This document shows positions 6,622 to 49,231 of a stretch of DNA of 64,000 nucleotides, piece after piece. The position numbers were made by a program, and so were the translations under genes. The stretch's first letter is position 1, and every line of letters begins with the position of its first letter. The DNA is from Candidatus Saccharibacteria bacterium UBA6572 (GTDB lineage: Bacteria > Patescibacteriota > Saccharimonadia > Saccharimonadales > Saccharimonadaceae). Location of the stretch: contig DJJI01000003.1 in NCBI GenBank assembly GCA_002434045.1, positions 997 to 64,996 on the forward strand, written 5' to 3'. Below the pieces are notes generated by a model. That model ran no database searches. It had not been told where the DNA came from and was given only the letters and a program-made list of their open reading frames with translations.

Positions 6622-7449
6622 ATGGTGCTAATGTTCATCTACGAGGTATTCATCTGCGTGTTCTTGGCCATTCTGGGCGCAGCTATGGGTAGTTTCGCTG
6701 GCGCAGTCGTATGGCGGCTCAAACATAAGCGTGACATCGTTCGCGAGCGCTCAGAGTGTGAATATTGCCATCACAAGCTCGGTGTCCTCGATCTTATCCC
6801 AATCGTGAGTTGGGTTACTCTGGCTGGAAAATGTCGATATTGTCACAAACCGATAGGCAGGAGCGCGCTACTGCTTGAAGTGGCACTGGCAGTTTATTTC
6901 GTCATCTCATATCTTGCGTGGCCGTACGGACTCACGACGGGTCTTGAGTGGTTGGCGCTCGTGTTATGGCTCGTAATGGGAGTAGGACTCGCGATACTTT
7001 TCGTCTACGACCTGAGATGGTATTTGTTGCCGGACAAGGTCGTTTTCCCGTTGATCGCCGTATCGGGTGTGCTGTTTGTGCTACGGGCAGTCGCAGAAGG
7101 ATGGACGCCGGGCATTTTCATCGTTGAGCTTGCACTCGCGCTGCTTGCTGTCGCCGGCTTTTACGGCTTTATTTATACAGTTTCGAAGGGTGAATGGGTT
7201 GGATTTGGCGACGTCAAACTCGGCGTGGTCATCGGCTTGGCTCTTGGGTGGCAACTCGCGCTCCTGGCCGTTCTGATTGCGAACCTCGTCGGCGTCCTGG
7301 TCATCTTGCCCGGTCTGGCCTCTGGGAAGCTGCAACGTAGCTCACGGGTTCCATTCGGTCCGTTTCTTATCACTGGTCTTGTGCTATCAGGCCTTTTTGG
7401 TCAGCAGATACTGCTTTGGTACGCAAGCCTCATTACCCCTGGTTTCTAG
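6622..7449 (+). CDS. pilD: Prepilin peptidase / N-methyltransferase PilD (peptidase A24)
   Basis: Polytopic membrane protein with the N-terminal zinc motif CEYCHHK...CRYCHKP, and the catalytic Asp motifs in the contexts FGDVKLG and VPFGPFL. Confidence 0.9.
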   Translation: MVLMFIYEVFICVFLAILGAAMGSFAGAVVWRLKHKRDIVRERSECEYCHHKLGVLDLIPIVSWVTLAGKCRYCHKPIGRSALLLEVALAVYFVISYLAWPYGLTTGLEWLALVLWLVMGVGLAILFVYDLRWYLLPDKVVFPLIAVSGVLFVLRAVAEGWTPGIFIVELALALLAVAGFYGFIYTVSKGEWVGFGDVKLGVVIGLALGWQLALLAVLIANLVGVLVILPGLASGKLQRSSRVPFGPFLITGLVLSGLFGQQILLWYASLITPGF

Positions 7450-9566: not shown

Positions 9567-11104
9567 TGAAGGCAATCATGAGGGAAATGGGGAACAGAAA
9601 GACCGAGAACGGATTCGTTTCGATACTGACGGTCTTGATGTTCATGATCTTGACGACCATCGTGACCGTAAGTTTCGTGACCCTTACACTCGGAGAGCAG
9701 CGCCAGACACTTAACGATGACCTCGCAAAAGGCGCGTACGATGCTGCTCAGGCTGGGATAGAGGACGCGAAACGAGCTATTCGACATTGTCGCAACACTG
9801 GATGTGAAACGGCACTTTACAACCAATCATGTCCAGGTTTTTTTGAGACTAATCAGATGAAGACGGACCTTGGCCTGACGACCGTATCGCCGACGACCAA
9901 TGCCATCAGGGTTGGAGAGCCCTCTGCGAACCAGCGCTATACTTGCGTGACGGTGTCAAATGTCATCAACAAGTTCTGGGGTGAGCTTGATCCAAATTCT
10001 GCTGCCTCGCAGACCGTCTTTCTGCCGCTCAAGGGCGAAACTCCCTTTAACAGTGTGAAAATATCATGGTCGATGCGATCAGGCACTGCCGCGCTGCCAA
10101 GTGCAGCCCAGGTCCAAACAACTAATCCCTCGCTGCCGAACTGGAATGCGAACTGGCCTGCGGCCATGAGGACGATGATACTGAGTCACCCAACCGGTAA
10201 TGTTTCGGAGAGCTCCGTCACATCTCGATCAACCTTTTTCGTACCGGCTTCCGGAGGCGTGAACAACTATGGCCACGGTAGTACGAACGCCCGAATCGTC
10301 ACAAGGTGTAATACTGCCAACCAGGGTGGTGCGGAAAACGTCGATGGTGATTATCTATGTCAGATGACGATTACAGGGGTAGGTATAACAGGCCAAGATT
10401 GGTATCTTCAGCTCGCACCTTATTACCAAGCAGCCGCGTTCAAGGTGGAACTGTTCAATAACAGTACTCGGGTCAATATGGTGGACGCTGGTTATTTAGT
10501 AGACTCAACTGGCGCAGTTTCAGATGTCTATCGTCGGGTCCAAGTGATGCTCGGTCCTGATGATGTTGTTTCTCCGAGCAGCTCGATACAAAGTGGTGAA
10601 AAACTATGTAAGAACTTCAGAGTAACCGGCTTCTTTAATACTGTCTTGTCCCTTGGTGAAAACTGTGATCCGACCGTTTCGGTGACGCCGCCCGTGGGAG
10701 GTGGTGGCGGCGGCGGTGGTGGCAGTGCCCAGGCATTGCTCGGAGGTTATTGCTCAATTAATGTGTGTAACCCAGGTGATGACGATGATGGACCCGGGGG
10801 TGGTGGAGGCAACGGAAATGGTAACGGCAATGCGCCTCCAACCAACTATACGCAAAGAATCTTTAACGCGTCGAACAACCCCTCATCAGAAGTCGCAGGC
10901 TGTCGTTGGGCGATCAGTGACGGGACAGTGATAAATAACCAATACTGTAATTTCAATGACAGCTTTCTCCACACGTTCCCAACCACACCATACCCACCAA
11001 GAGTGAGATATGATGTTACCCTGACAGTTACACTGCGATCAGGTGAGCAGGCAACATATACGGGTGCGTTCTACGAGCCAAACTACACCAGCGCAGGCAA
11101 CTAG
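9566..11104 (+). CDS. PilX-like minor pilin with Gly-rich linkers and a C-terminal PKD-like domain
   Basis: ATG 9566 overlaps the upstream stop (TAATG). The N-terminus ...KTENGFVSILTVLMFMILTTIVTVSF is PilX-like, with no E+5. It has a poly-Gly tract (G9), a GGGGGNGNGNGN tract, and a C-terminal segment CRWAISDGTV...FLHTF...YDVTLTVTLRSG resembling the PKD signature. The ORF track extension to 9488 overlaps the previous gene and is not needed. Confidence 0.65.
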   Translation: MKAIMREMGNRKTENGFVSILTVLMFMILTTIVTVSFVTLTLGEQRQTLNDDLAKGAYDAAQAGIEDAKRAIRHCRNTGCETALYNQSCPGFFETNQMKTDLGLTTVSPTTNAIRVGEPSANQRYTCVTVSNVINKFWGELDPNSAASQTVFLPLKGETPFNSVKISWSMRSGTAALPSAAQVQTTNPSLPNWNANWPAAMRTMILSHPTGNVSESSVTSRSTFFVPASGGVNNYGHGSTNARIVTRCNTANQGGAENVDGDYLCQMTITGVGITGQDWYLQLAPYYQAAAFKVELFNNSTRVNMVDAGYLVDSTGAVSDVYRRVQVMLGPDDVVSPSSSIQSGEKLCKNFRVTGFFNTVLSLGENCDPTVSVTPPVGGGGGGGGGSAQALLGGYCSINVCNPGDDDDGPGGGGGNGNGNGNAPPTNYTQRIFNASNNPSSEVAGCRWAISDGTVINNQYCNFNDSFLHTFPTTPYPPRVRYDVTLTVTLRSGEQATYTGAFYEPNYTSAGN

Positions 11105-12021
11105 GCTGGTTTTTTAGTTCTATGGAACTTGCTGTGCACGTCGTGGAGATGCTGGTCAGTCACATGGGTGTAAATCTGGGTGGTCGCGATATTGCTATGA
11201 CCGAGCATACTCTGGACCGACCGGATGTCAGCACCGTTCATGAGCAGATCAGTCGCGAAACTGTGACGCAACGTATGTGGTGAGACATGCTTGGTGATGC
11301 CTGCCAGCTTTGCGTAGTGCGAGACGATGCGCTGGACGGAGCGAGGAGTGAGACGGAAGCTTTCCCCCTCGCTGTCTCCGTGTTTTGCGCCGCTGTAGCG
11401 GATAAAGAGTGGTTTGGCAGGGTCGCTACGAGTTTCGAGGTACGCGGCGAGGCACTCGGTAGCTTCGGGGCTGACAAAGACCGGCCGGTCCTTTTGTCCC
11501 TTACCACGCACCATGAACTCGCCGCGCTGCAGGTTGACGTGGTCGCGGTTCAGGTTACACAGCTCGCTGACGCGGAGCCCAGATGAGTAGAGCAGCTCCA
11601 GGATAGCTTTGTCACGTAGCCCCCCAGCCGATTGGCCGTCAATTGCCTCGAGGATACGCTCGGTCTCCTCCTGAGTTAGGAAACTAACCTGTTTGCGCTT
11701 TGTTTTCGGTAATTCCACCTTTTCCGGAGTCAGCGTCTCGATATCACGCTTCGAGCAGTAGCCAAGGAAGCTTCGAAGGGCGATCAGGTGGTAGCTCTGG
11801 GTAAGGGTACTGAGGCTATCGCCGGCTTCGTTTTCATAACGATTGAGCCATAGGCGCCATTTACGGACCATCTCGCTGGTAATCTTTTCGACTTCGATGT
11901 CGCCGGCAAATTCAACCAGCCGATCAAGGTAGAGGTGGTAGTTCTCGGCTGTGCGCTGTGAACGGCCGCGTTCAACCTCGACGTGCTCGATGAAGTCGAT
12001 GATGAGCTCTGAGAGGTACAT
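11101..12021 (-). CDS. xerC: Tyrosine recombinase, XerC/XerD family
   Basis: Catalytic contexts GLRVSEL, HTLRHSFAT and LGHSNIATTQIYTHV are present, with an N-terminal SAM-like core-binding domain. The start is taken at MYLSELIID (ATG 12021); the ORF track extends to 12171. Confidence 0.85.
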   Translation of the reverse strand: MYLSELIIDFIEHVEVERGRSQRTAENYHLYLDRLVEFAGDIEVEKITSEMVRKWRLWLNRYENEAGDSLSTLTQSYHLIALRSFLGYCSKRDIETLTPEKVELPKTKRKQVSFLTQEETERILEAIDGQSAGGLRDKAILELLYSSGLRVSELCNLNRDHVNLQRGEFMVRGKGQKDRPVFVSPEATECLAAYLETRSDPAKPLFIRYSGAKHGDSEGESFRLTPRSVQRIVSHYAKLAGITKHVSPHTLRHSFATDLLMNGADIRSVQSMLGHSNIATTQIYTHVTDQHLHDVHSKFHRTKKPA

Positions 12022-12085
12022 ACGCCTATCATACCGCTTACGTTCATATTTTGCGACACGGTGCCGTGCGGTACAATAAATTGCA

Positions 12086-12880
12086 ATGACTATCTTTGAA
12101 GCCATCGTCCTGGGTCTCGTCCAGGGTTTGACCGAGTTTATCCCGGTTTCGAGCTCAGGGCATCTACTCATCTTTCAGAATTTCTTGCTCGGAGAGGTTG
12201 ATCACCTATTTATTCAAGCGCTTGATTTCGGGACCTTAGCGGCGCTACTCATCTACTTCTGGCCAAAACTCAAAGACTTGTTTCTACAGGTAACGAAACA
12301 AGATGATTACCGTCTGGCACGTAATATTCTCATCACGAGTATTCCAGCGGGGCTTTTGGGGCTCTTACTGGCTGACTTCATCCAGACCAACCCGTTTATC
12401 CTCTCGCCGTACCTGACGGTAGCGATGCTGGCCAGTGTCGGTGTGCTGATGATACTATCCGATATGCTGCCTCAGAAAACTGCTCGTGAGAGCGGTAGTG
12501 ATCTTAGTGCACGCCGTTCATTGTTCATCGGTTTGGCACAGAGCCTCGCGCTGATACCGGGTGTATCTCGTTCTGGTTCAACGATACTGGCTAGCCGCGT
12601 TATGGGGCTCAACCCTAAGGCTGCCGCAGAATACAGCTTTATGGTTTCGATCCCGATCATGGTCGGTCTGGTCGGCAAGCTGCTCCTCAAGCCATCCGAC
12701 CGCCAATACCTCATCGACAACGCCGGAGTATTGTTAGTGGCTAACCTGACAGCCTTTGTCGCGGCGCTTCTCGCCATCCATTTCCTGCTGAGCTACTTGT
12801 CGAAACATGGCCTCAGTATATTTGGCTATTACCGCATAGCCCTTGCTACGGTCGTACTGTATCTACTTCTGTTACAATAG
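12086..12880 (+). CDS. uppP: Undecaprenyl-diphosphate phosphatase (BacA/UppP)
   Basis: Motifs EFIPVSSSGHL and PGVSRSGSTI in a polytopic membrane protein of 264 aa. Confidence 0.9.
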   Translation: MTIFEAIVLGLVQGLTEFIPVSSSGHLLIFQNFLLGEVDHLFIQALDFGTLAALLIYFWPKLKDLFLQVTKQDDYRLARNILITSIPAGLLGLLLADFIQTNPFILSPYLTVAMLASVGVLMILSDMLPQKTARESGSDLSARRSLFIGLAQSLALIPGVSRSGSTILASRVMGLNPKAAAEYSFMVSIPIMVGLVGKLLLKPSDRQYLIDNAGVLLVANLTAFVAALLAIHFLLSYLSKHGLSIFGYYRIALATVVLYLLLLQ

Positions 12881-13569: not shown

Positions 13570-14085
13570 ATGGAACCTGCATTTGATGGTCAGCGAGAGG
13601 GCGAAGAAGTCGTCCTGGTCTTTCGCCGTCATATCATCGCGCTTCGCAAAGGTTTTTACTCGATACTGGTACCATTCGCGTTGGCCAGCCTACCAACCCT
13701 TTTCTTTCCGGGAGAGTTGCTCTATCTCTACATTGCGTTCGGTGGTCTTGCGTTCGGTCTCGTCCTGTTCTTTTACCACTGGATTGGTTGGTACTTCACG
13801 ATATTCATCCTGACTGACCAGCGCCTTAGACAGAGCACGCAAAAGGGCTTTTTCGGCAAGAGCGTCATCGACCTACCGGTATCAAAGATCCAAAACATAA
13901 GCTATACTATTCCTGGATTGAGTGGTGAGTTGTTTGGCTTCGGAACCATCGTTATTCAGACGTATGTTGGCGACCTTATCCTCGATCTCATCCACCAACC
14001 GGGCGAAGTGTATAACAAGCTGCAAGATGTCGCGGCAACAGCCGCCCCTAATACCTCAGGAAATCATGAAGAAATTAACAGCTAA
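13570..14085 (+). CDS. Membrane protein with a bacterial PH (bPH_2/YdbT-like) domain
   Basis: Two TM helices followed by ILTDQRLRQ...VIDLPVSKIQNISY...GFGTIVIQT, which resembles the bPH_2 pattern. Confidence 0.55.
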   Translation: MEPAFDGQREGEEVVLVFRRHIIALRKGFYSILVPFALASLPTLFFPGELLYLYIAFGGLAFGLVLFFYHWIGWYFTIFILTDQRLRQSTQKGFFGKSVIDLPVSKIQNISYTIPGLSGELFGFGTIVIQTYVGDLILDLIHQPGEVYNKLQDVAATAAPNTSGNHEEINS

Positions 14086-15097
14086 GTTCAAAAAGGCTCA
14101 ACCGCCTGAAGAGAAGTCGAGCCGGATCACCAACGAGACGGTCGCAGAACATCGTGAACAGATTTTGGCCGGCGGACGCAAGTTCAAGTATCCGGTCCAA
14201 TACGCAAAGCACAAACTCGTGCTCAACAGCCTCCTGATTGCGTTCGGTGCCATAGTACTCTTGTTCGTCCTCTGTTGGTACCTGCTGTACTTCGCGCAAG
14301 TGAACACCAAATTTATGTATCGGCTTACGCAGCTCGTGCCAGTGCCAGTCGCGAACGTCGACGGTGAAGATGTCCGCTATAGTGAATACCTCAAGAAATA
14401 TCGCAGCGATATCTTCTCGCTGGTTCAACAGGAGCAGATCAATCTCAAGAGCGCCGACGGCAAGCGCCAGAGCGAGTACTACAAGCGTCGCGAGCTCGAT
14501 GCGGCCATCAAAGAGGCGTATGCAGCCAAGTTGGCACGTGAACTCAAGATTACCGTCAGCCGTGCCGAAGTGGACGAATTTATCACCAAGACGGTGAACA
14601 GCAAGTCGATCAGCCTCGAAGCTTACGAAAAGACGGTGCTCCGCAACTTTTATGACTGGTCGCTCGATGAGTACCGTGGTGTCGTCAAAGCACGCCTCAT
14701 CACGCAAAAGGTAAGCTTTGCTATCGACGATGCTGCTCTCGCTCGTACCAAGTCGCTTGCCGCGCAGGCCAAAGGTGGGGCGGACTTTGCAAAGCTAGCT
14801 GCCGAGAACTCTGACGACCTCGCAACCAAGGGCAATGGTGGTGATGTTGGTGGCTTGCCGCTGGACAACCAAGACCCAAATCGTCTGATCGTTGCTGCTC
14901 AAAAACTTGAAAAGGGTCAGGTAAGTGATCCAATTCAGGGAAGCGATGGTTACTATGTCATCAAACTTATCGAAAAGAGTGACACAGCAGTGCACTACGC
15001 ACAGATAAAGGTAAATCTGACTGAGTTTGACAAGCGATTTGAGGCCGTTAAGAACGACAAAAAGATCAAAGAACACATCAAGGTCGAGCAGCTGTAG
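14066..15097 (+). CDS. Membrane-anchored PpiC/parvulin-type peptidyl-prolyl isomerase (PrsA/SurA-like)
   Basis: N-terminal TM (LLIAFGAIVLLFVLCWYLLYF) and a C-terminal parvulin block GADFAKLAAENSDD...GGDVGGL...GQVSDPIQGSDGYYVIKL. The start is taken at ATG 14066 (MKKLTAKF); the ORF track start at 13922 lies inside the previous gene. Confidence 0.8.
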   Translation: MKKLTAKFKKAQPPEEKSSRITNETVAEHREQILAGGRKFKYPVQYAKHKLVLNSLLIAFGAIVLLFVLCWYLLYFAQVNTKFMYRLTQLVPVPVANVDGEDVRYSEYLKKYRSDIFSLVQQEQINLKSADGKRQSEYYKRRELDAAIKEAYAAKLARELKITVSRAEVDEFITKTVNSKSISLEAYEKTVLRNFYDWSLDEYRGVVKARLITQKVSFAIDDAALARTKSLAAQAKGGADFAKLAAENSDDLATKGNGGDVGGLPLDNQDPNRLIVAAQKLEKGQVSDPIQGSDGYYVIKLIEKSDTAVHYAQIKVNLTEFDKRFEAVKNDKKIKEHIKVEQL

Positions 15098-15101
15098 GAC
15101 C

Positions 15102-15129
15102 AAAAATCACCTCCTTCGAGGTGATTTTC
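15102..15129 (+). terminator. Rho-independent terminator
   Basis: Stem aaaatcacctc / gaggtgatttt with loop cttc and a T-run. Confidence 0.85.
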
Positions 15130-15251
15130 ATATGCTTTGTAGCGGGCCCTGGTGGATGAAGTTGGAACTTTAGATACTCTAAGAAATGAAAGCGCCCCTC
15201 AGGGCACCTTCACCTCGAAATGAGAGAGGTGCCCTTTAGGGCTGTTGTTGG

Positions 15252-15863
15252 TCACGCCGCCCGCATGAGGGGGTTGACTGTGAAGTAGGGCTCGCGTCCG
15301 TGGACTCCGCTGCCGACGATGCGCAGGAACTGCCGGTCGAAGTCGGCCTGTACCGGGAGGCTCTCGTGAGGTGTGAGGATCCCGATGCGGTGTACCTCGC
15401 CAGCCTGCATGAGAACAGCGTCCTCGTATGGATACAGGTCAGCCTGATTGCCGATGTCACCGTCGTACGAGGTGTCCTCGTGCTCGACGTCCCACAGGGC
15501 GCAGCTGCCGCTCAGGTTGTTCGCGAGCAGCACCCGGACATCGCGGTCAAGGAATACGTTGGTCGCCGATCCCCAGCCACTTCCGCCCCAGCCGAACTGG
15601 CCTGTGGGCCGGCGACCTGCTTCGGTGTGAAGCGCGCGGCCGAACGTGGCGCGGGCTCCGCGGTGCGGCACACCCTTGCGAACGGGTGACTCGTCGATGG
15701 TCAGGAACCCGACGTCGCCTCTCGTGAGGTACGTCGACTCGACGATGCTGCGGTACGCAGCGTAGTCGTCCGGAATCGAATCCGGATCGCCCTGGATGTA
15801 GGGCATCATGAGGCAACGAACTTCCGAATACTCGGGGAAGGTCACCGTTCCAACTTGTGTCAT
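15252..15863 (-). CDS. Hypothetical protein encoded by a high-GC (actinobacterial-like) gene
   Basis: 203-aa ORF with AAGGA 8 nt upstream of the ATG. Codon third positions are strongly G/C. Five other ORFs of 60 aa or more overlap it on both strands, which is typical of GC-rich DNA. I recognise no family motif. Confidence 0.6.
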   Translation of the reverse strand: MTQVGTVTFPEYSEVRCLMMPYIQGDPDSIPDDYAAYRSIVESTYLTRGDVGFLTIDESPVRKGVPHRGARATFGRALHTEAGRRPTGQFGWGGSGWGSATNVFLDRDVRVLLANNLSGSCALWDVEHEDTSYDGDIGNQADLYPYEDAVLMQAGEVHRIGILTPHESLPVQADFDRQFLRIVGSGVHGREPYFTVNPLMRAA

Positions 15864-15922
15864 TGGCGTTCCTTAATGTTCGAGGTATTCCTACACACAC
15901 CCGAATGGGCACGATAATAAAA

Positions 15923-15946
15923 TTAATACCACAAAAGTGGTATTAA
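15923..15946 (-). terminator. Hairpin with T-run (minus strand) between the tRNA-Asp repeat copy and the high-GC gene
   Basis: Perfect 10-bp stem ttaataccac / gtggtattaa with loop aaaa. On the minus strand it is followed by ttttatt. Confidence 0.5.
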
Positions 15947-15954
15947 TCAATACT

Positions 15955-15972
15955 TGGCGGGCCCGACCGGAT
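15955..15972 (-). repeat. Direct repeat: perfect 18-nt copy of the tRNA-Asp 3' end (att-like)
   Basis: tggcgggcccgaccggat at 15955-15972 is identical to 16126-16143, which is the 3' end of tRNA-Asp including CCA. A third, degenerate copy at 15141-15160 (agcgggccctggtggatgaa) shares the blocks gcgggccc and ggatgaa at the same spacing. Confidence 0.85.
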
Positions 15973-16125
15973 GAACGCACGATGATAGACTAGCTTCGCT
16001 ATTCCACCATCGGCTAAACCTTGTACAAATCAGAGATTTGACAAGCTTCTGAACCGTCTTCGCCGGTTCGTATCCGAAACGAGCAAACACGAAAAAAGTC
16101 CACCAGAGTAGGTGAACTTTTTTCG

Positions 16126-16203
16126 TGGCGGGCCCGACCGGATTCGAACCGGCGATCTCCTCCGTGACAGGGAGGCGTGATAGGCCAACTTCACTACGAG
16201 CCC
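16126..16203 (-). tRNA. tRNA-Asp (anticodon GTC)
   Basis: Hand-folded: acceptor gggctcg/cgggccc, D arm gtga...tcac, anticodon arm cctcc-ctGTCac-ggagg, T arm gccgg-ttcgaat-ccggt, and an encoded CCA. Confidence 0.9.
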
Positions 16204-16320
16204 GCGACGTCAGTCGCGCCCAGTCACAGGTTTCGGGCACGAATTCGACCAAGCAATCTTAGCAAATTTTCACCCCCTACGCAACAGGGGAGAGTTTGCT
16301 ATAATGGTCGGCGGACCTGT

Positions 16321-16396
16321 GCCACTTTAGCTCAGTTGGTAGAGCGACACATTCGTAACGTGTAGGTCAGCAGTTCGATCCTGCTAAGTGGCTCCA
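16321..16396 (+). tRNA. tRNA-Thr (anticodon CGT)
   Basis: gccactt acceptor, gctc-agttggta-gagc D arm, anticodon loop ttCGTaa, T arm cagca?gttcgatcctgct context, and an encoded CCA. Confidence 0.88.
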
Positions 16397-16415
16397 CGTC
16401 GGTATTCACTTCGGC

Positions 16416-16458
16416 GTCGCCAATCATTTTGCGATCAAGTAGCAAAATGATTGGCGAC
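16416..16458 (+). terminator. Perfect 17-bp hairpin after tRNA-Thr (terminator-like, no T-run)
   Basis: gtcgccaatcattttgc - gatcaagta - gcaaaatgattggcgac. Confidence 0.45.
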
Positions 16459-16554
16459 ACCTCCGTTATACCTCCTTTCGACTGAAAACAGGGTTTTCAC
16501 TCGGGAATCGCAGAGAATATGGGGCGCATTCGCGCTATACTAATGCATAGAGTT

Positions 16555-16920
16555 ATGAAGAAAACCTTTCAAAGTTCCATCCGAGATCGCAGCTATGTGA
16601 TACCACTGGCGCTCGGGGCACTGCTCGTCATCGTCCTGCTCATCATGGGTGCGGCTCAGATTCGCATCTCTGAGCTCCAGGTACCGGTGCGTTATACCAG
16701 TTTTGGTATCACGAACTTTTACCGTGAACAGTGGTTTTATCAGCTGACATTTCTGTTTTTTGGGCTTCTTGTCTATGTCATGCACACGCTCGTTGGGCTC
16801 AAGCTGTTCGAGAAAAAAGGACACGACTTCGCTGTTGCGTTCCAGTGGCTGACGGTCGGCTTACTACTTATGACCGTCATCACGGTAGCGGCAATCTTTC
16901 AGGTGGCGGACCTCGTCTAA
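16555..16920 (+). CDS. Small polytopic membrane protein (partner of the downstream GT2 synthase)
   Basis: Three or four TM helices, with its stop 1 nt before the next start. The start is taken at MKKTFQ (ATG 16555), downstream of a TATACT box; the ORF track starts at 16519. Confidence 0.5.
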   Translation: MKKTFQSSIRDRSYVIPLALGALLVIVLLIMGAAQIRISELQVPVRYTSFGITNFYREQWFYQLTFLFFGLLVYVMHTLVGLKLFEKKGHDFAVAFQWLTVGLLLMTVITVAAIFQVADLV

Positions 16921-16921
16921 C

Positions 16922-18553
16922 ATGACTGATCTCGAAATTCCTCTCGGTAAGCGCACGCGGTTCTACAGGTTTTTCGAGATGCTGCCCGCGATCCTCAGCT
17001 ATACGATGATACTGCTGCCAATCGTGCTCAGTTTCATCAATCCGATCTACGGCGCGGTGTTCATCATCGTGTTCATCATCGTGTTCTTCGTCAAAGCGAT
17101 CGGTATGTCATACCGCACGATACAGGGCTATAACACCCTCCAACGTGCTCAAAAGATTGATTGGAAGGGTCGTCTGGCTGATCTCGAGGATCCTGCAGCT
17201 GCGCTGCACTCTCGGCACTACTCAGACTCATGGCGCTCAGAGGTGCATCAGCATAATCTCGAACAGCTCGATGCGACGGTGCACGCCAGAAAGCCATCAG
17301 ATATCTATAATGCGGTCATCATTGCTACTTACAATGAGGCGCGTGAAGTACTGGAACCGACTATAAAAGCCGTTCTAGAGGGTGATTACGACGCGAGTCG
17401 TATCATCATGACTATTGCGTACGAAGGCCGTGGACCTGAAAGTACTGAGGCGGCAGTCAAGGCGCTGCAGAAGAAATACGCACATGCCTTCCATAGTTTC
17501 TATATCGTCAAACACCCGGCAAACATGCCGAACGAAGTCGTCGGCAAGGGCGGCAACATCACCTATGCCGGTAAGTACTTGGCTGGTGAGATTAAAAAGC
17601 TCGGTATCGACCCCGAGAACGTGCTCGTGACAACGCTTGATAGCGACAACCGGCCGCATGGCAGCTATTTCAGCTATGTGACTTACGAATTTATCGTTCA
17701 CCCCGAGCCGCGACACGTGGCGTTTCAGCCGCTAGCGCTGTTTCTCAACAATATTTGGGACGTGCCGGCACCGATGCGAGTGCTTGCCACCGGTAACTCG
17801 TTCTGGAACCTCGTGAACTCGCTGCGGCCACATATGCTGCGAAACTTCGCTGCTCATTCACAGAGCATGGCCGCGCTGATCGACATGGACTTTTGGAGCA
17901 CACGAACCATCGTCGAGGATGGCCACCAGTTCTGGCGCAGCTATTTCCGTTATGATGGTCACTACTCGGTGGTGCCGATCTATATTCCGATCTATCAGGA
18001 TGCCGTGCTCGCCGAAGGCTATCGCAAGACGCTCAAAGCTCAGTTCATACAACTTCGGCGCTGGGCGTATGGTGCCTCTGATGTACCATATGTCGCCGAA
18101 AAGGTATTCACACGCGAGCGTACCGTACCGTTTTGGGATGGCCTCACCAAGTTTGTTCGACTCCTCGAAGGTCACGTCAACTGGGCGAGTGCTAGCATCA
18201 TCTTGCTGGTTGGCGCCTGGGGGCCGTTGTTCATCAATCCAGAGAGCAACCGTAGCTTAGTCGCACACGAGCTACCAACGGTCGCGAGCAGCCTGCAGCA
18301 GTTTGCCATGGTCGGATTGTTTATCACGATATTCCTGTCATTTCGCATGTTGCCGCCACGCCCAGAGCGCTACAAGCGGCATCGTAACATCGGTATGCTA
18401 CTCCAGTGGGTGCTGATGCCGGTTACGAGCGTCATCTATGGTTCGGCCGCGGCGATATACGCCCAAACCCGACTCCTCATCGGTAAATATCTCGATCGGT
18501 TCGATGTAACCGAAAAAGCTGTCGTCAAAGAAGACGGCGAGACTGTTAGCTGA
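16922..18553 (+). CDS. Membrane-embedded family 2 glycosyltransferase, processive synthase type
   Basis: N- and C-terminal TM bundles flank a GT-A domain containing IIATYNE, TLDSDN (DxD), VEDGHQFW (ED) and QLRRWAYG (QxxRW). Confidence 0.8.
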   Translation: MTDLEIPLGKRTRFYRFFEMLPAILSYTMILLPIVLSFINPIYGAVFIIVFIIVFFVKAIGMSYRTIQGYNTLQRAQKIDWKGRLADLEDPAAALHSRHYSDSWRSEVHQHNLEQLDATVHARKPSDIYNAVIIATYNEAREVLEPTIKAVLEGDYDASRIIMTIAYEGRGPESTEAAVKALQKKYAHAFHSFYIVKHPANMPNEVVGKGGNITYAGKYLAGEIKKLGIDPENVLVTTLDSDNRPHGSYFSYVTYEFIVHPEPRHVAFQPLALFLNNIWDVPAPMRVLATGNSFWNLVNSLRPHMLRNFAAHSQSMAALIDMDFWSTRTIVEDGHQFWRSYFRYDGHYSVVPIYIPIYQDAVLAEGYRKTLKAQFIQLRRWAYGASDVPYVAEKVFTRERTVPFWDGLTKFVRLLEGHVNWASASIILLVGAWGPLFINPESNRSLVAHELPTVASSLQQFAMVGLFITIFLSFRMLPPRPERYKRHRNIGMLLQWVLMPVTSVIYGSAAAIYAQTRLLIGKYLDRFDVTEKAVVKEDGETVS

Positions 18554-19019
18554 TACCACGCCTTGTCGTGCGTGGACGACCACGGTTGGCTCTCTGAGAC
18601 GTGTTCTGGACCAATCCATGTCGGGCACCGTACTGGATACCAGCGGTCGCATCAAAGTTTGAGAGGGTGGCGTAGACTTCCTCGGCGATCGCGACAGTTG
18701 TTACCGTATCTGTCGCCGTCGCTTGGATGTTTTGGGCAACGGTCTGAGCGAGCCAGTAGCTGTCGTCTGGAACGCTGTCGCTCGCACGGTGCGACAGACT
18801 GCCAGCGATACTAAAGATCAACCGTGGCAAACTAAAGGACGAGAGCCTCCCAGATGCGTCTTTGACCGAAAAAACGTAACTGTCATCAGCGACAACTTCA
18901 GAGGTCGTAAAAACGGCCCCACACGCCTTACATTCTCGTCGACGCCATACACTGGGCGTTTTTTTGTGTGGCCGTGAGTTCATGACCCTGGTATCGTGGC
19001 TACATTTTATGCAAATCAT
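18546..19019 (-). CDS. nrdR: Transcriptional repressor NrdR
   Basis: N-terminal zinc ribbon MICIKCSHDTRVMNSR...RRRECKACGAVFTTSE followed by an ATP-cone-sized domain. Confidence 0.85.
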   Translation of the reverse strand: MICIKCSHDTRVMNSRPHKKTPSVWRRRECKACGAVFTTSEVVADDSYVFSVKDASGRLSSFSLPRLIFSIAGSLSHRASDSVPDDSYWLAQTVAQNIQATATDTVTTVAIAEEVYATLSNFDATAGIQYGARHGLVQNTSQRANRGRPRTTRRGIS

Positions 19020-19083
19020 GTCTATATATTGTCATAACGCTTGGGAAAACGCTAGTGGATAAACAGTTTGGGTGTGGGGATAA

Positions 19084-19118
19084 GAAAAACCGCAGATCTA
19101 TGAGGGGATAGATCTGCG
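19084..19118 (-). terminator. Rho-independent terminator (minus strand) after the small ORF
   Basis: 11-bp stem cgcagatctat / atagatctgcg with loop gagggg. The A-run at 19084-19089 is a T-run on the minus strand. Confidence 0.75.
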
Positions 19119-19150
19119 ACCGGCGAGGGTAATATCTGTGGTAGACGGCG

Positions 19151-19288
19151 TTATTTTGCCGAGATGCGTGATCGCTTTATACGACCTGAGTCTTTGGAGA
19201 CGGGCACCATCTCGTAGAAGAGTTGAAACTTTTCTAATTCTGAGCTGATGTGGCCACGGCGGGCCTGGGTGGATGTGGTGGTATCCAT
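19151..19288 (-). CDS. Unannotated small basic protein (45 aa), possibly bS21-like
   Basis: ATG 19288 to TAA 19151 encodes MDTTTSTQARRGHISSELEKFQLFYEMVPVSKDSGRIKRSRISAK. It lies below the 60-aa cutoff of the ORF track. It is flanked by an extended -10-like box (tgcTAGTAT) ending 7 nt before the ATG and by a strong terminator. The segment FYE..P..K....KR loosely recalls the ribosomal protein S21 C-terminus. Confidence 0.35.
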   Translation of the reverse strand: MDTTTSTQARRGHISSELEKFQLFYEMVPVSKDSGRIKRSRISAK

Positions 19289-19502
19289 AGTTATTATACT
19301 AGCACATAAGCGTTTTAATGTCAATAGTGCTCATGCTTGCTGCCTATATCACCAGGTGCATAAACACCATGATTTTTTGACGTATCTACCGGTGGAAAAG
19401 TCCCTGAATTCGTGTGGAAAGCGTTAAAACATCGGTAAACTGGCAGTTTTGCGGTACACTAGTAGATAGATAACAGGGGTAAGAAGGGCGGAAGGATCCA
19501 GC

Positions 19503-20210
19503 ATGATTACGCTGCGCGGTATCAACAAGACCTATGGCAAGAAAAAGCAGCGTTTTCAGGCGCTCAAGGATATCGATCTCGAGATACCTGACGGTGCCTC
19601 GGTTGCTATCGTCGGTAAGTCTGGTTCTGGCAAATCTACCCTGATGCATGTCATGTCTGGACTCGATCGGCCTCAGAGCGGTGAAGTAGTCGTCGACGGT
19701 CAGGATATCTTGAAACTAAAGGCCAAAGCGGTTGATAGGTTTCGCTCTGAAAAGATGGGCTTTATCTTTCAGGCGTTCTTTGTACAGGGGAACGAGAGCA
19801 GTTTTCATAACGTATCCCTACCGCTAGAGATCGCCAAAGTGTCGCGTGGCAAGCGCAAAAAGATGATTCTTGAGGCACTTGAGCGCGTCGAGATGACTGA
19901 CAAAGCCCAGGAACGGGCTCGTAACCTTTCAGGCGGTCAAAAGCAGCGCCTGGCTATCGCACGGGCTATCGTTGCGAAACCAAGCATCCTGTTCGCCGAC
20001 GAGCCGACCGGCAATCTCGACTCTACCACTGGCGAGCACATCGAAGAATTGCTGTTTGACCTCAATAAACAACAAGGCGTAACGCTGGTTATTGTGACGC
20101 ATGACAGAGATCTCGCCTCTCGCTGCGATATTCGGGTAAACATTAAGGATGGTGCGATCCAGAGTATCGAGACTCCCAAGCGGCCGAAGGCAAAAGGAGG
20201 CAAGTCATGA
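19503..20210 (+). CDS. ABC transporter ATP-binding protein (MacB/LolD-type)
   Basis: Walker A GKSGSGKST, signature LSGGQKQR, Walker B ILFADEPTGNLD and H-loop VTHD. Confidence 0.92.
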   Translation: MITLRGINKTYGKKKQRFQALKDIDLEIPDGASVAIVGKSGSGKSTLMHVMSGLDRPQSGEVVVDGQDILKLKAKAVDRFRSEKMGFIFQAFFVQGNESSFHNVSLPLEIAKVSRGKRKKMILEALERVEMTDKAQERARNLSGGQKQRLAIARAIVAKPSILFADEPTGNLDSTTGEHIEELLFDLNKQQGVTLVIVTHDRDLASRCDIRVNIKDGAIQSIETPKRPKAKGGKS

Positions 20211-21598
20211 ATGCGTTCGATTTGATTCAACGTGCCGGTCGCTCTCTAGGGAATGCCAAGGTTCGTACGGTTCTGACCTCACTTGCTATCGGTGTTGGTG
20301 CCTTTACATTGACGGCTACTTTGGCGGCCGGTAACGGTATACGTGACTACACTGACCGACTTATCAGCAATAACTTCGATCCGGCAGAGTTAATCGTCGG
20401 GCGAGACGCTGAGATAGAGAACAATGGAGCACCTAACAGCTCACCGAAGGAGTACGATGAGTCAGTTTCTAGTCTGACGGTCGGCGGTGATGGCAGTAGT
20501 CTCCAGGTAAAGCAGGTGACAAGTGAGGATGTTGAGGAGCTCAAGAAATACGACTTCGTCGAACAGGTTAGGCCGAACTATCAAGTCCAGGCGCGCTACG
20601 TGACTACACCTGGCAACGACAAGCGTTACACACTGACGCTTCAGGCGTACAATCCTGGCCAAAAGCCAGAGCTCGAGGCCGGTAAACTGCCAGAGCGGGG
20701 TGATATCAAGAACGGTACGCTGTTGCTCCCGATGAGCTACGTGCAGTTGCTTGGCTTTAAGAACGCTGCTGATGCTATCGGCAAAGAGGTGAGTATCGCG
20801 ACTGCGCAACCTTTTACTGAGGAGGCGCTCCAGGAGTATTTCATGAATCTTCAGATGGGTACGATGTCCGGTGAAGAGTCGGCCACACCGGAGCCGACCG
20901 AACAACTGACGACGTACAAGGTTGCTGCGGTGACCAAACAAGGTGCCGCTTCACTCAGCTTTGCGGGACTGCCTATCATGCTTTCGAACGAAGATACCGG
21001 TGCGCTCTATGACTTCACGACCGAAGGTACTCAGAACCACGGGAAATACGTCTACGTCTACGTTCGAGTCAAAGGCGGTGAGGACGAACAGAAAGCGCTT
21101 GATGCCAAGGCTGAGCTCAAAGAAGACGGTTATTACGTCCAAACGAGCCAAGACATCCAAAAGACCATCACCCAGTTCGTTGACGTGCTCCAGATACTCG
21201 TCGGTGTGTTCGGTGTGATTACGGTTGTAGCAAGCGTATTCGGTATCATTAACACGATGTACATCTCTGTTCTCGAACGCACCCGCGAGATCGGCCTGAT
21301 GAAAGCGCTCGGTATGCGTGGTCGTGACGTGGCATGGCTCTTTAGGATTGAGGCGGCTTGGATAGGCTTCCTTGGTGGTGTCATCGGTGCTGGTATAGCC
21401 TATGGTGTCGGTACGGCACTCAATCCGTGGCTGACTGAAACGCTCGGTCTCGGTGAAGGTAACTCGATCCTCATCTTTGACTTCGGCCAGATCGCCATCT
21501 TGATACTCAGCCTTATACTGGTTGCTATCATTGCAGGTTGGTTCCCAGCCCGCAAGGCGGCCAAGCTCGATCCGATCGAGGCGCTCAGAACAGAGTAG
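20207..21598 (+). CDS. ABC transporter permease, FtsX/MacB family with a large extracytoplasmic domain
   Basis: TM1, then a loop of about 300 aa, then three C-terminal TMs carrying the FtsX-like motif (ERTREIGLMKALGMRG). ATGA overlap with the ATPase gene. Confidence 0.85.
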   Translation: MNAFDLIQRAGRSLGNAKVRTVLTSLAIGVGAFTLTATLAAGNGIRDYTDRLISNNFDPAELIVGRDAEIENNGAPNSSPKEYDESVSSLTVGGDGSSLQVKQVTSEDVEELKKYDFVEQVRPNYQVQARYVTTPGNDKRYTLTLQAYNPGQKPELEAGKLPERGDIKNGTLLLPMSYVQLLGFKNAADAIGKEVSIATAQPFTEEALQEYFMNLQMGTMSGEESATPEPTEQLTTYKVAAVTKQGAASLSFAGLPIMLSNEDTGALYDFTTEGTQNHGKYVYVYVRVKGGEDEQKALDAKAELKEDGYYVQTSQDIQKTITQFVDVLQILVGVFGVITVVASVFGIINTMYISVLERTREIGLMKALGMRGRDVAWLFRIEAAWIGFLGGVIGAGIAYGVGTALNPWLTETLGLGEGNSILIFDFGQIAILILSLILVAIIAGWFPARKAAKLDPIEALRTE

Positions 21599-29939: not shown

Positions 29940-30134
29940 TTAGACTCCTAGAGCTCGCTTAACGTTTTTAGAAATCTTGCCAGTGATCTCGGCACTGGAA
30001 CCGATAACGCGCTTGCGACGGTTGCTCTTTTTCGCGAGCAGGTGACCACCAGATGCGCGACGACGGGTGACTTTGCCACTGGCGGTCAACTTGACACGCT
30101 TGGCCGTCCCCTTGTGGGTCTTTAGTTTAGGCAT
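29940..30134 (-). CDS. rpmI: 50S ribosomal protein L35
   Basis: [22 protein letters not shown]... is the typical bL35 sequence. Confidence 0.95.
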
Positions 30135-30640
30135 TACTTACTCCTTACCGTGATGCTCAGATTGCGACCAGCCATCTGAGGCTTCTGTTCGACGATAGCG
30201 TCTTCTTCGAGCGCCGCTATAATGCGGTTCATCAGTTCGTATCCCAGCTCCTGGTGGGCCATTTCACGTCCTCGGAAGAATATTTGGATTCGTACCTTGT
30301 CGCCATCACTCAAAAAAGAACGGATCTTTTTGAGTTTGATGTCGAGGTCGTGCTGGCCAATCTTGAGACCAAGGCGCATTTGCTTGAGCTCGCTTTGCTT
30401 CGCATTCTTTCGGTTCCGCTGCTGCTCCTTCATCTTCTGGTACTGGTACTTGCCCCAGTCAATGATTTTCGCGACAGGCGGAGATGCGGCAGGAGATATC
30501 TCAACCAAATCGAGTCCGGCTTTTTCGGCCGCTGCTATAGCATCAGTACGCGACATGATACCTAACTGCTCACCGCTTTCGCCGATAACTCGCAGTTCCG
30601 AAGCACGGATAGCTTCGTTTATTCGAACTGACTTGTTAAT
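30134..30640 (-). CDS. infC: Translation initiation factor IF-3 (ATT start codon)
   Basis: The ORF track shows only the part from an internal Met. The frame stays open upstream and reads INKSVRINEAIRASELRVIGESGEQLGIMSRTD, the conserved IF-3 N-domain. It starts at ATT (30640), 9 nt after GAGGAG. A non-canonical AUU start is the classical infC feature. Confidence 0.88.
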   Translation of the reverse strand: MNKSVRINEAIRASELRVIGESGEQLGIMSRTDAIAAAEKAGLDLVEISPAASPPVAKIIDWGKYQYQKMKEQQRNRKNAKQSELKQMRLGLKIGQHDLDIKLKKIRSFLSDGDKVRIQIFFRGREMAHQELGYELMNRIIAALEEDAIVEQKPQMAGRNLSITVRSK

Positions 30641-30716
30641 ACCGAAGGACTCCTCGTCTTACAGTTTGTGTTAATACCAGGGGCCATTTTAGCAAATAAC
30701 AGAGAAAGAGGCAAGG

Positions 30717-32228
30717 CTAGTTGATATTGTCGCGCTTGCGGTACTGAAGAGCCTCTGCCATATGTGTCGGGGTTATCGTATCACTGTCTTCGAGATCGGC
30801 GATAGTACGGGCGACTTTGATGAGTTTGAAGTAGCTGCGGGCGGATAATTTCAAGCGGTCAGTGGCCTGGTTGAGCAGCACGGTTGCCTCTTGCGAGAGG
30901 TTGGTGAGGTCGGCGATATTTTTGCTCGGCAGTTCGGCGTTCGAGCGACGCTTGCCGTGACGGTCGGCTTGTCGCTGACGAGCTTTCTCGACCCGGGCGC
31001 GTACAGCAGGGCTCTCGCCGGGGCCATCGTGGGTGGCGAGCAAATCTTTTTCAGGAACGCGAGCCACGCTCAGCACCATATCGATACGGTCCATCAGCGG
31101 TCCCGAGACGCGCTTTTGGTAGTTCAATATCTGAGGGATAGCGCAGCTACACTCATGATCGGGGTCCCCGTAGTAACCGCAAGGACAGGGGTTTTTGGTA
31201 GCGACCAGCATAAAACTAGCCGGGTAGGTGATGCGGCTGGCGGCGCGCGATACATGAACCTTGCGGTCCTCGAGCGGTTGGCGGAGTGCTTCGAGAACCG
31301 ACCGTGGGTACTCAGGCAGCTCGTCGAGAAACAGAACTCCATGATGGGCTAGGCTGACTTCACCTGGAAGTGGGCGTGTACCGCCACCGATCAGGGCAAT
31401 ACTGCTCGTGGTGTGATGTGGTGATCGGAAGGGGCGAGAGGTAACAATACCGTCGACATCCTCACCAACCAAGCTGTGCAACTTGGTGATTGCAATCTGT
31501 TCAGCGTAGGTTGGCTGTGGCAATATCGACATCAGTGCACGAGCCAGCATCGTTTTTCCAGCCCCAGGCGGTCCATCCAGGAGTAGATTGTGGCCACCAG
31601 CCGCAGCGATCAGAAGTGCCCGCTTAGCCTGCTCCTGGCCTTTAATGTCAGCGATATCAACAGGGTAGGATGGTGATATTGTTGATTTTTTCGCATCGAA
31701 AGGAGGTAGGTTTTTCTCCCCAATGAGATGAAGGAATAGGTTTGCAAGTGTATCTGCACCAATAACGGTTACGCCGTCGACGAGAGCGGCTTGGTGTTGG
31801 TTAGCCTTTGGGATGATCACCGTAGTGAAACCATGTTCTCGAGCCGTCTCAACAATATTGATAACCCCTTTGATCGGACGTAGCTCACCGCTGAGCGCTA
31901 GCTCACCAGCACAGAGTATGCCTTTGACACTCTCCTGACGGAGCTGTCCCGCGACGATGAGGATAGCAAGTGCTATCGGTAGGTCAAAGTGCGAGCCATC
32001 TTTAGGTAGATCGGCCGGCGCAAGGTTTATGGTTACTTTCTGATTCGGAAAGTCGAGCATGGAGTTTTTGATAGCGCTCCGTACTCGTTCCTTAGACTCA
32101 TCGATGGCTTTGTTGCCGAGACCGACGATCGACAGTGTAGGCAGGCCCCTGGACGTATCGCACTCGATATCAATCAGGCGTCCTTCGAAGCCATAGGCCG
32201 TGGCAGATATAACCCTCGCAGTAGCCAT
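30717..32228 (-). CDS. comM: Mg-chelatase-like ATPase YifB/ComM
   Basis: N-terminal Lon-protease-like domain, Walker A GPPGAGKT, Walker B VLFLDELPE, a zinc-ribbon-like CPCGYYGDPDHECSC, and the C-terminal Mg_chelatase_C region. The start is taken at MATARV (32228). Confidence 0.9.
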   Translation of the reverse strand: MATARVISATAYGFEGRLIDIECDTSRGLPTLSIVGLGNKAIDESKERVRSAIKNSMLDFPNQKVTINLAPADLPKDGSHFDLPIALAILIVAGQLRQESVKGILCAGELALSGELRPIKGVINIVETAREHGFTTVIIPKANQHQAALVDGVTVIGADTLANLFLHLIGEKNLPPFDAKKSTISPSYPVDIADIKGQEQAKRALLIAAAGGHNLLLDGPPGAGKTMLARALMSILPQPTYAEQIAITKLHSLVGEDVDGIVTSRPFRSPHHTTSSIALIGGGTRPLPGEVSLAHHGVLFLDELPEYPRSVLEALRQPLEDRKVHVSRAASRITYPASFMLVATKNPCPCGYYGDPDHECSCAIPQILNYQKRVSGPLMDRIDMVLSVARVPEKDLLATHDGPGESPAVRARVEKARQRQADRHGKRRSNAELPSKNIADLTNLSQEATVLLNQATDRLKLSARSYFKLIKVARTIADLEDSDTITPTHMAEALQYRKRDNIN

Positions 32229-32457
32229 AACTGTTTTAGAGTATACATGGGTCTTTATTTCTGACAACGCTTTTGGTAAAATAAGGGTGTCGAACCGTAG
32301 GAATAGGCACCTGCGAGTCGGTTCGACCATCTGCGACCCTGCAGTTCTACGGCTAAAGATCGTTTAACGATGTTTAGCCGAGAGGAAGAGGGAGTGCTAT
32401 AAAACGATGCTCTGCGAGCTTGCTCGTCAGAGCGAGTCCAAGGCATCACTCTGACGA

Positions 32458-49085: not shown

Positions 49086-49162
49086 GGGGCGTTAGCTCAG
49101 TTGGCTAGAGCACCTGCTTTGCAAGCAGGGGGTCCGGGGTTCGAGTCCCCGACGCTCCACCA
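49086..49162 (+). tRNA. tRNA-Ala (anticodon TGC)
   Basis: ggggcgt acceptor with G3:T70, anticodon loop ttTGCaa, T arm ccggggttcgagtccccg, and an encoded CCA. Confidence 0.95.
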
Positions 49163-49196
49163 AGTTTATTTTGAAAACACCACGTATTTGGTGTGT

Positions 49197-49231
49197 GGGC
49201 GATTAGCTCAGTTGGTTAGAGCGCGTCACTG
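49197..49231 (+). pseudogene. Truncated tRNA-Ile copy (5' half only: acceptor strand, D arm, 5' anticodon stem)
   Basis: gggcgattagctcagttggttagagcgcgtcactg is identical to 49269-49303 of the intact gene. With the preceding tgt, the perfect direct repeat is 38 nt (49194-49231 and 49266-49303). Identity breaks off exactly at the anticodon loop. Confidence 0.85.

Follow-up and report, generated by a model that had tools for sequence, protein, structure and literature searches.

A 64,000-nt stretch of contig DJJI01000003.1 from Candidatus Saccharibacteria bacterium UBA6572 (positions 997 to 64,996, forward strand; hereafter ‘the window’, numbered from its first letter) contains, next to a tRNA-Asp gene, a sharp GC-rich islet that encodes a single protein of 203 aa (15252–15863, minus strand). 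The reading that we favour, and hold with moderate confidence, is that the islet is a gene unit running from promoter to terminator, of GC-rich, phage-like origin, which sits in a strain-variable slot beside tRNA-Asp and whose product is an oxygenase. It is well supported that the islet is accessory DNA in a tRNA-Asp-anchored hot spot that varies between strains, that the complete gene unit also exists in unrelated contexts, and that the islet is out of compositional equilibrium with its host.

The window as a whole has a GC content of 51.2% (600-nt windows, mean 0.512, sd 0.027), and the 600-nt maximum of the entire window, 0.647, falls on the open reading frame (ORF), which itself has 64.1% GC (z = 4.8). 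Set against the 45 other ORFs of at least 150 aa, the gene deviates in total GC (z = 7.3) and above all at third codon positions (GC3 0.788, compared with 0.553 ± 0.046; z = 5.1); no other gene of the window has a GC3 above 0.65. First and second codon positions are ordinary (GC1, z = 1.7; GC2, z = 0.75), and the anomaly is therefore synonymous rather than a product of amino acid composition. Raised GC extends over about 15175–15800, which corresponds to the ORF and its 3′ stem-loop, and the promoter/leader side (15800–15950) has 39–49% GC. A prior inspection of the letters without database searches (the sequence-only reading) had described a sharp GC island with a single protein, and recounting bears this out: the minus-strand ORF of 203 aa lies where it was placed and is the unique GC maximum of the window, and the hand-counted G+C per 60-nt line (41, 39 and 46 within the gene, 24 in the flank) is confirmed. 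The same reading went too far in calling third positions ‘almost all G or C’, measured GC3 being 78%. Its count of six overlapping ORFs of at least 60 aa was right, but such a density is not peculiar to this stretch, the background being 4.0 ± 1.5 ORFs per 631-nt window, with a maximum of 9 and with 6–8 in many windows.

The GC island amounts to a single complete gene unit, about 0.8 kb long, from a promoter-like region through a terminator-like stem-loop. Nucleotide similarity (about 77%) to the closest copies of the gene, in four metagenome loci (L009, L010, L111 and L113), is confined to the segment from about 15936 to about 15182, the flanks being unrelated; what is shared comprises a -35/-10 region, a leader with a small hairpin, the ribosome-binding site (RBS), the ORF and a 3′ stem-loop of ~20 bp. 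In the window, the upstream part (15864–15954, minus strand) holds the RBS (AAGGAA), the short leader hairpin and an AT-rich promoter-like region (TTGATT-17-ATTAAT), within which a palindrome (15921–15948) scores as terminator-like. The -35/-10 region and leader align with those of six clade members and with the junction at another locus, L158; the leader hairpin has weak covariation support. The conserved unit ends in the terminator-like stem-loop (15182–15251, minus strand; arms 15194–15209 and 15227–15242), which has a ~20-bp consensus stem, a folding energy of -25.9 kcal/mol and 3 compensated pairs across 7 clade members. In 1.4 Mb of fetched loci, the pattern ‘-10 + ATCG-hairpin + RBS’ occurs almost only upstream of the 203-aa gene (1 match in a shuffled control). 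The idea that -10 and ATCG-hairpin leader form a general ‘cassette chassis’ was dropped, as the pattern is nearly gene-specific and not slot-wide.

The promoter-to-terminator unit is found, with unrelated flanks, in at least ten other Saccharibacteria-type contexts. The gene lies inside the tRNA-Asp slot in four diverged lineages (the window, L011, L157 and L158) and in at least six other contexts (L009/L111, L010, L112, L113, L156 and L159), the non-slot contexts often being among restriction-modification, Abi, reverse transcriptase or HNH genes. Among loci typical of the candidate phyla radiation (CPR), a tRNA lies no more than 700 nt away in 8/24, where 3.9 would be expected. No neighbouring gene is conserved across 64 loci, and hence the enzyme appears to act alone; PADLOC models of anti-phage defence matched neither the 203-aa protein nor any other slot ORF.

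Around the slot, gene order is conserved: tRNA-Arg, bPH, a SurA-like gene, the slot, tRNA-Asp (minus strand), tRNA-Thr (plus strand), p133 and p543. The left flank is the SurA-like peptidyl-prolyl isomerase gene (14066–15097, plus strand; Pfam SurA_N_3 and Rotamase), which is syntenic in about 80 Saccharibacteria-type metagenome loci and whose protein was used to fetch the related metagenome loci (80); the conserved right flank is tRNA-Thr (CGT; 16321–16396, plus strand; ARAGORN, Rfam and synteny). Slot counts refer to the 44 loci with tRNA-Asp inside the fetched flank, since in the others the slot extended beyond the 4-kb flank or the contig stopped short. Over these 44 syntenic Saccharibacteria loci, slot length ranges from 70 to 3604 nt, with empty slots (70–95 nt) in L046, L048, L099 and L101. 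The sequence-only reading had called for a look at related TM7 loci, and this finds the 203-aa gene in 0/44 of the slots and finds it missing also from L031, the locus of a closely related strain. L031 matches the window at 94–96% in flanking DNA and at 98–99% in the SurA, p133 and p543 proteins, but has an unrelated 1.6-kb segment of 40% GC in place of 15141–16119, a strain-variable segment of 979 nt. The breakpoints found by blastn, 15140 and 16120, fall at DR2, a degenerate copy of the 3′ terminus of tRNA-Asp, and at that terminus itself; the last sequence in common before the left breakpoint is the terminator hairpin of the SurA-like gene (15103–15128, plus strand; an 11-bp perfect inverted repeat, then a T run), homology stopping at 15140. 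The slot beside tRNA-Asp is thus a hot spot, empty in some relatives and filled with other cargo (up to 3.6 kb) in others.

The cargo itself is varied. The insert of L031 (5075–6966) has ORFs of 107, 62 and 287 aa, and neither these nor the companion ORFs of L011 gave a match in Pfam, NCBIfam or PADLOC or had relatives in the scanned viral contigs. L031 also has three copies of the tRNA end (CCCGACCGGAT...), a complete tRNA-Asp (6714–6791) and a 3′-truncated one (6908–6966); tRNA-end copies 24–165 nt past tRNA-Asp recur in L011, L041, L103 and L031. Slots of L045 (5074–7507) and L158 (5841–10065) carry a Fe/Mn superoxide dismutase and large unassigned ORFs, the L045 slot having 58% GC against 48% for its genome. 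Several slots are GC-enriched relative to their own genomes (L045, L051, the L011 cassettes and L157).

Could the islet be foreign GC-rich DNA mis-joined into the contig, through chimeric assembly or contamination? Conserved tRNA genes are places where metagenome assemblies can become chimeric, and one contig, L002 (ERZ761581 NODE_89), is suspicious in this respect: compared with 13877–21598 of the window, it is 100% identical from 13877 to about 16400, just beyond tRNA-Thr, after which identity falls abruptly to about 80% over the next 5 kb. The switch marks either a site of recombination at the tRNA cluster or a chimeric metagenome assembly. Since the block of 100% identity takes in core genes, it speaks for recombination or assembly chimerism at the cluster and not for cassette transfer, and L002 was dropped as evidence of cassette-specific transfer. 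For the islet, however, an assembly error has a negligible probability: the protein is carried by 18 contigs, and the eight independent ones that were fetched (JGI, ENA and Logan samples) have it with identical junctions on both sides; the locus is therefore not an assembly artefact; moreover, the same unit recurs in Saccharibacteria-type contexts of many other assemblies.

The edges of the unit bear the marks of tRNA-Asp (GTC; 16126–16203, minus strand; ARAGORN, Rfam tRNA 62.5 bits), whose 3′ end anchors the slot. On the tRNA side lies DR1 (15955–15972), which repeats the 3′ end of tRNA-Asp exactly over 18 nt (100% identical to 16126–16143), and at the distal edge lies DR2 (15142–15160), found by repeat search and matching the same end at 15/19 positions. 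DR2 overlaps a motif, GGATGAAGTTGGAAC, at 15154–15168 which, among 155 loci, is restricted to the window lineage and to two between-cassette copies in L011. At L158, a real tRNA-Asp 3′ end abuts the unit (...CCGGTCGGGCCCGCCA directly followed by AGAATTGATTTAATACC...) in a junction homologous to that at DR1 in the window, from which it follows that DR1 is what is left of the tRNA end at which the unit was attached. Between DR1 and tRNA-Asp is a spacer of 153 nt (15973–16125), containing a hairpin (16088–16127) and a 17-nt inverted fragment (16060–16076) that is 94% complementary to the T-arm of tRNA-Asp (16139–16155) and suggests a past inversion or rearrangement at the site. An Rfam search of 14800–16600 found nothing beyond tRNA-Asp and tRNA-Thr.

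These features would fit a history in which the unit became attached to the tRNA-Asp 3′ end, by site-specific recombination in trans or by tRNA-anchored recombination, and in which a later event at the same site, of which the spacer is probably the remnant, regenerated the tRNA and left behind the 18-nt relic and the 153 nt. Both routes are plausible. The tRNA ends present in duplicate in the window, L031, L011, L041, L103 and L050 favour the first, site-specific recombination in trans. The second, in which DNA is taken up and recombines homologously at the conserved tRNA genes, would be consistent with the identity switch of L002, unless that contig is a chimera. In its position at a tRNA 3′ end, its tRNA-end direct repeats (18/18 and 15/19), its deviant composition, its presence/absence polymorphism between close strains and its hot spot with lineage-specific cargo, the islet resembles tRNA-linked genomic islands. 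It differs from them in being only about 0.8–1 kb long, with a single gene and no integrase or mobility gene, and in that the conserved unit is exactly one transcription unit, which also occurs away from tRNA-Asp without the repeats; it is a variant of the tRNA-linked genomic islet that lacks the defining integrase.

The same repeats lend themselves to another account, in which the tRNA-Asp slot is an integron-like platform where complete single-gene cassettes from a GC-rich mobile pool, each running from promoter to terminator, are inserted in tandem by a trans-acting host recombinase, with degenerate copies of the tRNA-Asp 3′ end (core GGATGAAGTTRGAAC) as sites. L011 (1–2700) has, downstream of tRNA-Asp, three small GC-rich units in a row, each with a single ORF (115 aa, 127 aa and the double-stranded beta-helix (DSBH) protein that is the homolog of the 203-aa product), separated by a 33-nt repeat, ...AAGTTCTAACTTCATCCGCTACGGC (737–769 and 1318–1350), related to DR2 of the window; L050 has two further tRNA-end-like repeats at spacings of 746 nt and 1443 nt; L031 has its three tRNA-end copies and truncated second tRNA-Asp; and the shared core, with a small palindrome, is confined to these boundaries. 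Small single-gene units that follow one another in the same orientation, with a repeated boundary motif between them, as in L011 and L050, are indeed what integron cassettes and CALIN arrays (clusters of attC sites lacking integron-integrases) look like. Here, though, the boundary motif is tRNA-derived with a palindrome of only 5-2-5 nt (attC was not formally searched), each unit has its own promoter-like region, and arrays are confined to a few genomes, 2–3 of about 50 slots. The DSBH unit, furthermore, occurs elsewhere without the motif (L009, L010, L111–113); companion ORFs had no detectable relatives in scanned viral contigs or curated libraries, so that a shared pool is not demonstrated; and ordinary tRNA-integrating elements, decaying one after another, would leave comparable traces. 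Nor is there a dedicated integrase, only an Xer-type enzyme 3 kb off: IntI was not found, and this sole nearby tyrosine recombinase scores 147 bits against an integron-integrase cut-off of 265. We consider the platform improbable; were it true, ultra-small CPR bacteria would have a system resembling integrons, with the DSBH oxygenase as its most widespread cassette. A boundary motif, AACTTCATCC, was rejected as a general feature of the slot, being present only in the window lineage and L011. In L011, the 115-aa unit has a promoter/leader resembling that of the DSBH unit, and the third unit is followed by a stretch of 57–70% GC (2200–2500) without a clear gene.

The 203-aa protein belongs to a large family, with 1,259 homolog clusters at 90% identity (E≤1e-3), the best 120 of which are 63–81% identical to it and about 200 aa long. 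At 50% identity there are 494 clusters, including longer multidomain proteins, some with eukaryote-type partners, which implies that the family extends to eukaryotes or giant viruses. Domain relatives at 30–37% identity occur in multidomain proteins P0170, P0199, P0251 and P0152, with villin headpiece, ankyrin repeats, leucine-rich repeats + protein kinase + TIR, and a ubiquitin-like domain as partners; Pfam searches of ten longer multidomain relatives returned eukaryote-type partners only and no functional clue. The family has conserved motifs of its own (RCLMMPYIQG, GFLTIDES, WGGGGWG and DGDIG). Weak local matches of residues 103–130 (15474–15557; LLANNLxxSCAxWD) to WDR5 and G-beta were judged to be motif-level noise, and WD40 homology was rejected.

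Among viral proteins, PHROG 8970 (of unknown function) is matched by profile at E=3e-17. A structural model (AlphaFold2 with 51 homologs; pLDDT 91, pTM 0.88) found uncharacterized viral relatives in BFVD from Catovirus (TM 0.73, E 6e-14), Pseudomonas phage Noxifer, Ralstonia RPSC1, Erwinia pEa_SNUABM_47 and Orpheovirus, followed, after these family members, by proteins annotated as PhyH, 2OG-Fe(II), JmjC and P4H at TM 0.3–0.4. The viral members (Catovirus A0A1V0S8Z7, Noxifer A0A1Y0T0W9, RPSC1, Erwinia pEa_SNUABM_47/_9, Salicola SCTP-2 and Orpheovirus) are of the same fold (TM 0.56–0.73), length and single-domain organisation, but are only 12–30% identical and are compositionally native to their own genomes, whereas the window copy falls in a tight CPR subfamily (63–81% identity) that is GC-richer than every one of its hosts.

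What the model suggests is an enzyme. It has a double-stranded beta-helix (jelly-roll) core, and most of the top 50 Foldseek matches in PDB (probability 0.95–0.99) are Fe(II)/2-oxoglutarate (2OG) dioxygenases, the rest being mostly other cupin-fold proteins; they include 8zyb, EvdMO1, FtmOx1, OkaE, AndA, SptF, KanJ, PtlH, HygX and proline hydroxylase. Within the close subfamily, H67, R68, H79, T80, E81, D134, G135, D136, H166, E167, S168, R177, Q178 and F179 are invariant, and in 47 sequences reaching down to 28% identity only H79, H166, R177 and R181 remain so. In the model, H79-x-E81 lies on an early short strand, H166 on strand 166–168 and R177/R181 on the next strand (175–183), giving the arrangement HxE...H-x10-R with R177 at H166+11. 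Conservation of H79, E81 and H166 thus points to an HxD/E...H facial triad for Fe(II), and R177 and R181, on the strand that follows the distal His, would supply the basic residue holding the C5 carboxylate of 2OG; TauD and PhyH have the same H-to-R spacing. The protein shares with PhyH/TauD-like Fe(II)/2OG dioxygenases the double-stranded beta-helix core, the early-strand HxE, the distal His and the Arg 11 residues on; it differs in its own motifs, in having no membership in their sequence profiles (Pfam, NCBIfam and PDB), in its length (203 aa, compared with 250–400) and in a global TM of about 0.3–0.36. It is probably a remote member of the superfamily. The favoured reading would make it a minimal double-stranded beta-helix enzyme that binds Fe(II) through H79/E81/H166 and 2OG through R177 (and R181) and oxidises some substrate. 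On balance, and by a narrow preference, we predict an Fe(II)/2OG-dependent oxygenase, the main alternative being some other metal-dependent cupin activity.

Where the gene comes from was approached through the distribution of its homologs. A scan of 185,579 GTDB species representatives, made with two conserved peptide patterns and hence able to see only close relatives, found 22 homolog loci: nine in Saccharibacteria, nine in other CPR (Peribacteria, Paceibacterota, Parcubacteria, Niyogibacteria and unclassified Patescibacteria) and one each in Alphaproteobacteria, Elusimicrobiota, Planctomycetaceae, Bacteroidota and Acidiferrales. The closest relatives, at 72–81% aa identity, are Saccharibacteria or CPR-type copies with a gene GC of 56–66%. 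In a neighbour-joining tree, the window copy is in a clade with L009, L010, L011, L111, L112 and L113, with the Peribacteria copies and uncultured viral contigs of 61–69% GC, which carry the gene natively, as sister groups; the copies of L156–L159 were fetched after the tree was made and are equally close by identity (72–79% aa).

Cultivated Saccharibacteria are epibionts of Actinobacteria, and the sequence-only reading had proposed a high-GC actinobacterial or actinophage donor, that is, recent transfer from the host, or from its phage, to the epibiont. A gene GC of 64% is within the actinobacterial range, and uncultured viral contigs of 61–70% GC do carry the gene natively in a sister clade. 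A recent donor would, however, be a close relative and so visible to the peptide-pattern scan, and none of the 22 GTDB loci (0/22) is actinobacterial. Nor did tblastn find an actinophage homolog among 50,697 phage records, where the two weak matches (26–28% identity) are jumbo phages of Erwinia and Salicola; 72,556 plasmids yielded no homolog either. Homologs in 40 IMG/VR contigs are 38–68% identical, and the high-GC viral contigs, at no more than 68% identity to the window protein, lie below the CPR copies. At the nucleotide level they match no cultured phage, the identity of their helicase and exonuclease to proteins of phages of unrelated hosts (Bordetella, Salmonella and Acinetobacter) does not exceed 34%, and their replication genes are no nearer to actinophages than to other phages. 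The AT-rich promoter/leader, finally, is common to CPR copies only. The host-transfer model is largely refuted and we consider it very unlikely; best hits among Saccharibacteria and CPR copies of similar GC are essentially what the sequence-only reading had itself named as grounds for giving it up. The broader claim of foreign acquisition fares better, for the deviant GC and the strain-variable position at a tRNA are typical of acquired DNA; it is the donor that does not stand.

Composition distinguishes CPR from viral copies. Gene GC exceeds host GC in 25/25 CPR-type loci (mean +10.5 points, slope 0.26), eleven Saccharibacteria-type loci having 56–66.5% in the gene and 40–53.5% in the host, whereas in 39 of the IMG/VR contigs, those in which the GC of gene and flank was compared, gene GC follows contig GC (28–68%; slope 0.84, r 0.94) with a mean offset of +0.5 points (Mann-Whitney p=4e-8). 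The family thus seems compositionally native in phages and giant viruses and a guest in CPR, from which a GC-rich origin of the unit, ultimately phage-like, would follow; the unit would be accessory DNA of such origin circulating among Saccharibacteria, and a high-GC phage reservoir is a possible source. The persistently high GC of CPR copies might reflect divergence in an unsampled GC-rich reservoir (possibly phages) with separate imports, or else a gene-specific force inside CPR genomes, GC-biased gene conversion (gBGC) or selection.

The second of these possibilities is part of a further account, according to which the gene is a long-term resident beside tRNA-Asp. Several Saccharibacteria lineages would have received it there from their common ancestor and passed it on mainly by vertical descent, often losing it and now and then relocating it, and its high GC would be an equilibrium maintained by gBGC at a recombination hot spot or by mRNA or codon selection. 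The junction of tRNA-Asp and promoter is alike in the window and L158, whose core proteins are only 37–58% identical; four diverged lineages have the gene in their slot; GC is elevated in all CPR copies whatever the GC of the host; and other slot cargo is often GC-enriched. Long residence sits badly, on the other hand, with the gene's absence at 44 syntenic loci as well as in L031, a ~95%-identical strain, and with a GC3 above 0.65 in no other window gene. Viral copies at 61–64% aa identity are encoded at 39–43% GC, so GC-rich codons are not a necessity for this protein. The DSBH protein is 70–75% identical where adjacent core proteins are 30–60% identical, and the nearest synonymous relatives of the window copy, L156 and L113 (excess identity at fourfold-degenerate sites 0.35 and 0.32), together with L009/L111, are in non-syntenic contexts. 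We regard long residence as unlikely, yet as the most serious competitor of the phage-like accessory unit.

Several observations count against the reading that we favour. Fourfold-degenerate sites of slot-sharing copies are near saturation (excess identity 0.10–0.13, compared with 0.07–0.28 for p543), so that the synonymous-site test gives no sign of recent exchange between slot-sharing lineages and makes the gene no younger than p543; recent transfer between these lineages is accordingly not shown, and long residence is possible. The strain polymorphism can be read either as gain in the window strain or as loss in L031, and among the sampled homologs there is no GC-rich donor at >81% identity. 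The variable segment (15141–16119) has no ORF besides that of 203 aa and no integrase or mobility gene, and the sole nearby recombinase (11101–12171, minus strand), 3 kb from the slot, is Xer-type (XerA_Arch model 241 bits, cut-off 220; it scores as XerC/D/XerA), syntenic in related contigs and probably housekeeping. A strict sigma-70 scan found no promoter in the window unit, and the promoter function of 15864–15954 is accordingly one that we infer from the alignment. With regard to the product, the sequence-only reading was right that no family could be assigned, for no curated family (Pfam, NCBIfam, PADLOC, PDB sequences) captures the protein: Pfam gave no match for the query or any of 47 family members at E≤0.1, NCBIfam gave none for the 203-aa protein, PDB sequence and profile searches gave only local WD40-like noise, and no curated 2OG-oxygenase sequence model was matched in these libraries. 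The Foldseek matches to PDB are globally weak (TM 0.28–0.36, E about 2e-3), and E81, which most sequences of the wide alignment have, is not strictly invariant.

Elsewhere in the window, composition has ordinary explanations. The second-highest GC stretch (about 30700–31050, 59%) is the 3′ end of a comM/YifB-like gene, and the contents of the region examined around this second compositional outlier (30134–32330, about 30.2–31.0 kb) are ordinary. The top ‘deviant’ ORF in codon usage (30222–30674, plus strand) was discarded as an antisense artefact over infC (IF-3; 30134–30556, minus strand). GC is lowest (about 40%) at 49086–49500, at and just after adjacent tRNA-Ala (TGC) and tRNA-Ile (GAT) genes laid out as in a spacer of an rRNA operon.

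A literature search found nothing on this protein family or this tRNA-Asp slot. Saccharibacteria have tiny genomes and depend on host bacteria, and how they gain accessory functions is an open question on which the locus touches, being a concrete, recurrent insertion hot spot at tRNA-Asp with cargo that differs between strains of one species. It teaches the caution that high GC in an epibiont is not in itself evidence of transfer from a high-GC host; the GC disequilibrium points to an unsampled GC-rich reservoir that feeds CPR or to a gene-specific process that elevates GC. It also reveals a large, highly conserved family, without a curated name, that is common to CPR, jumbo phages, giant viruses and some eukaryote-like multidomain proteins, and which the predicted Fe(II)/2OG active site makes directly testable.

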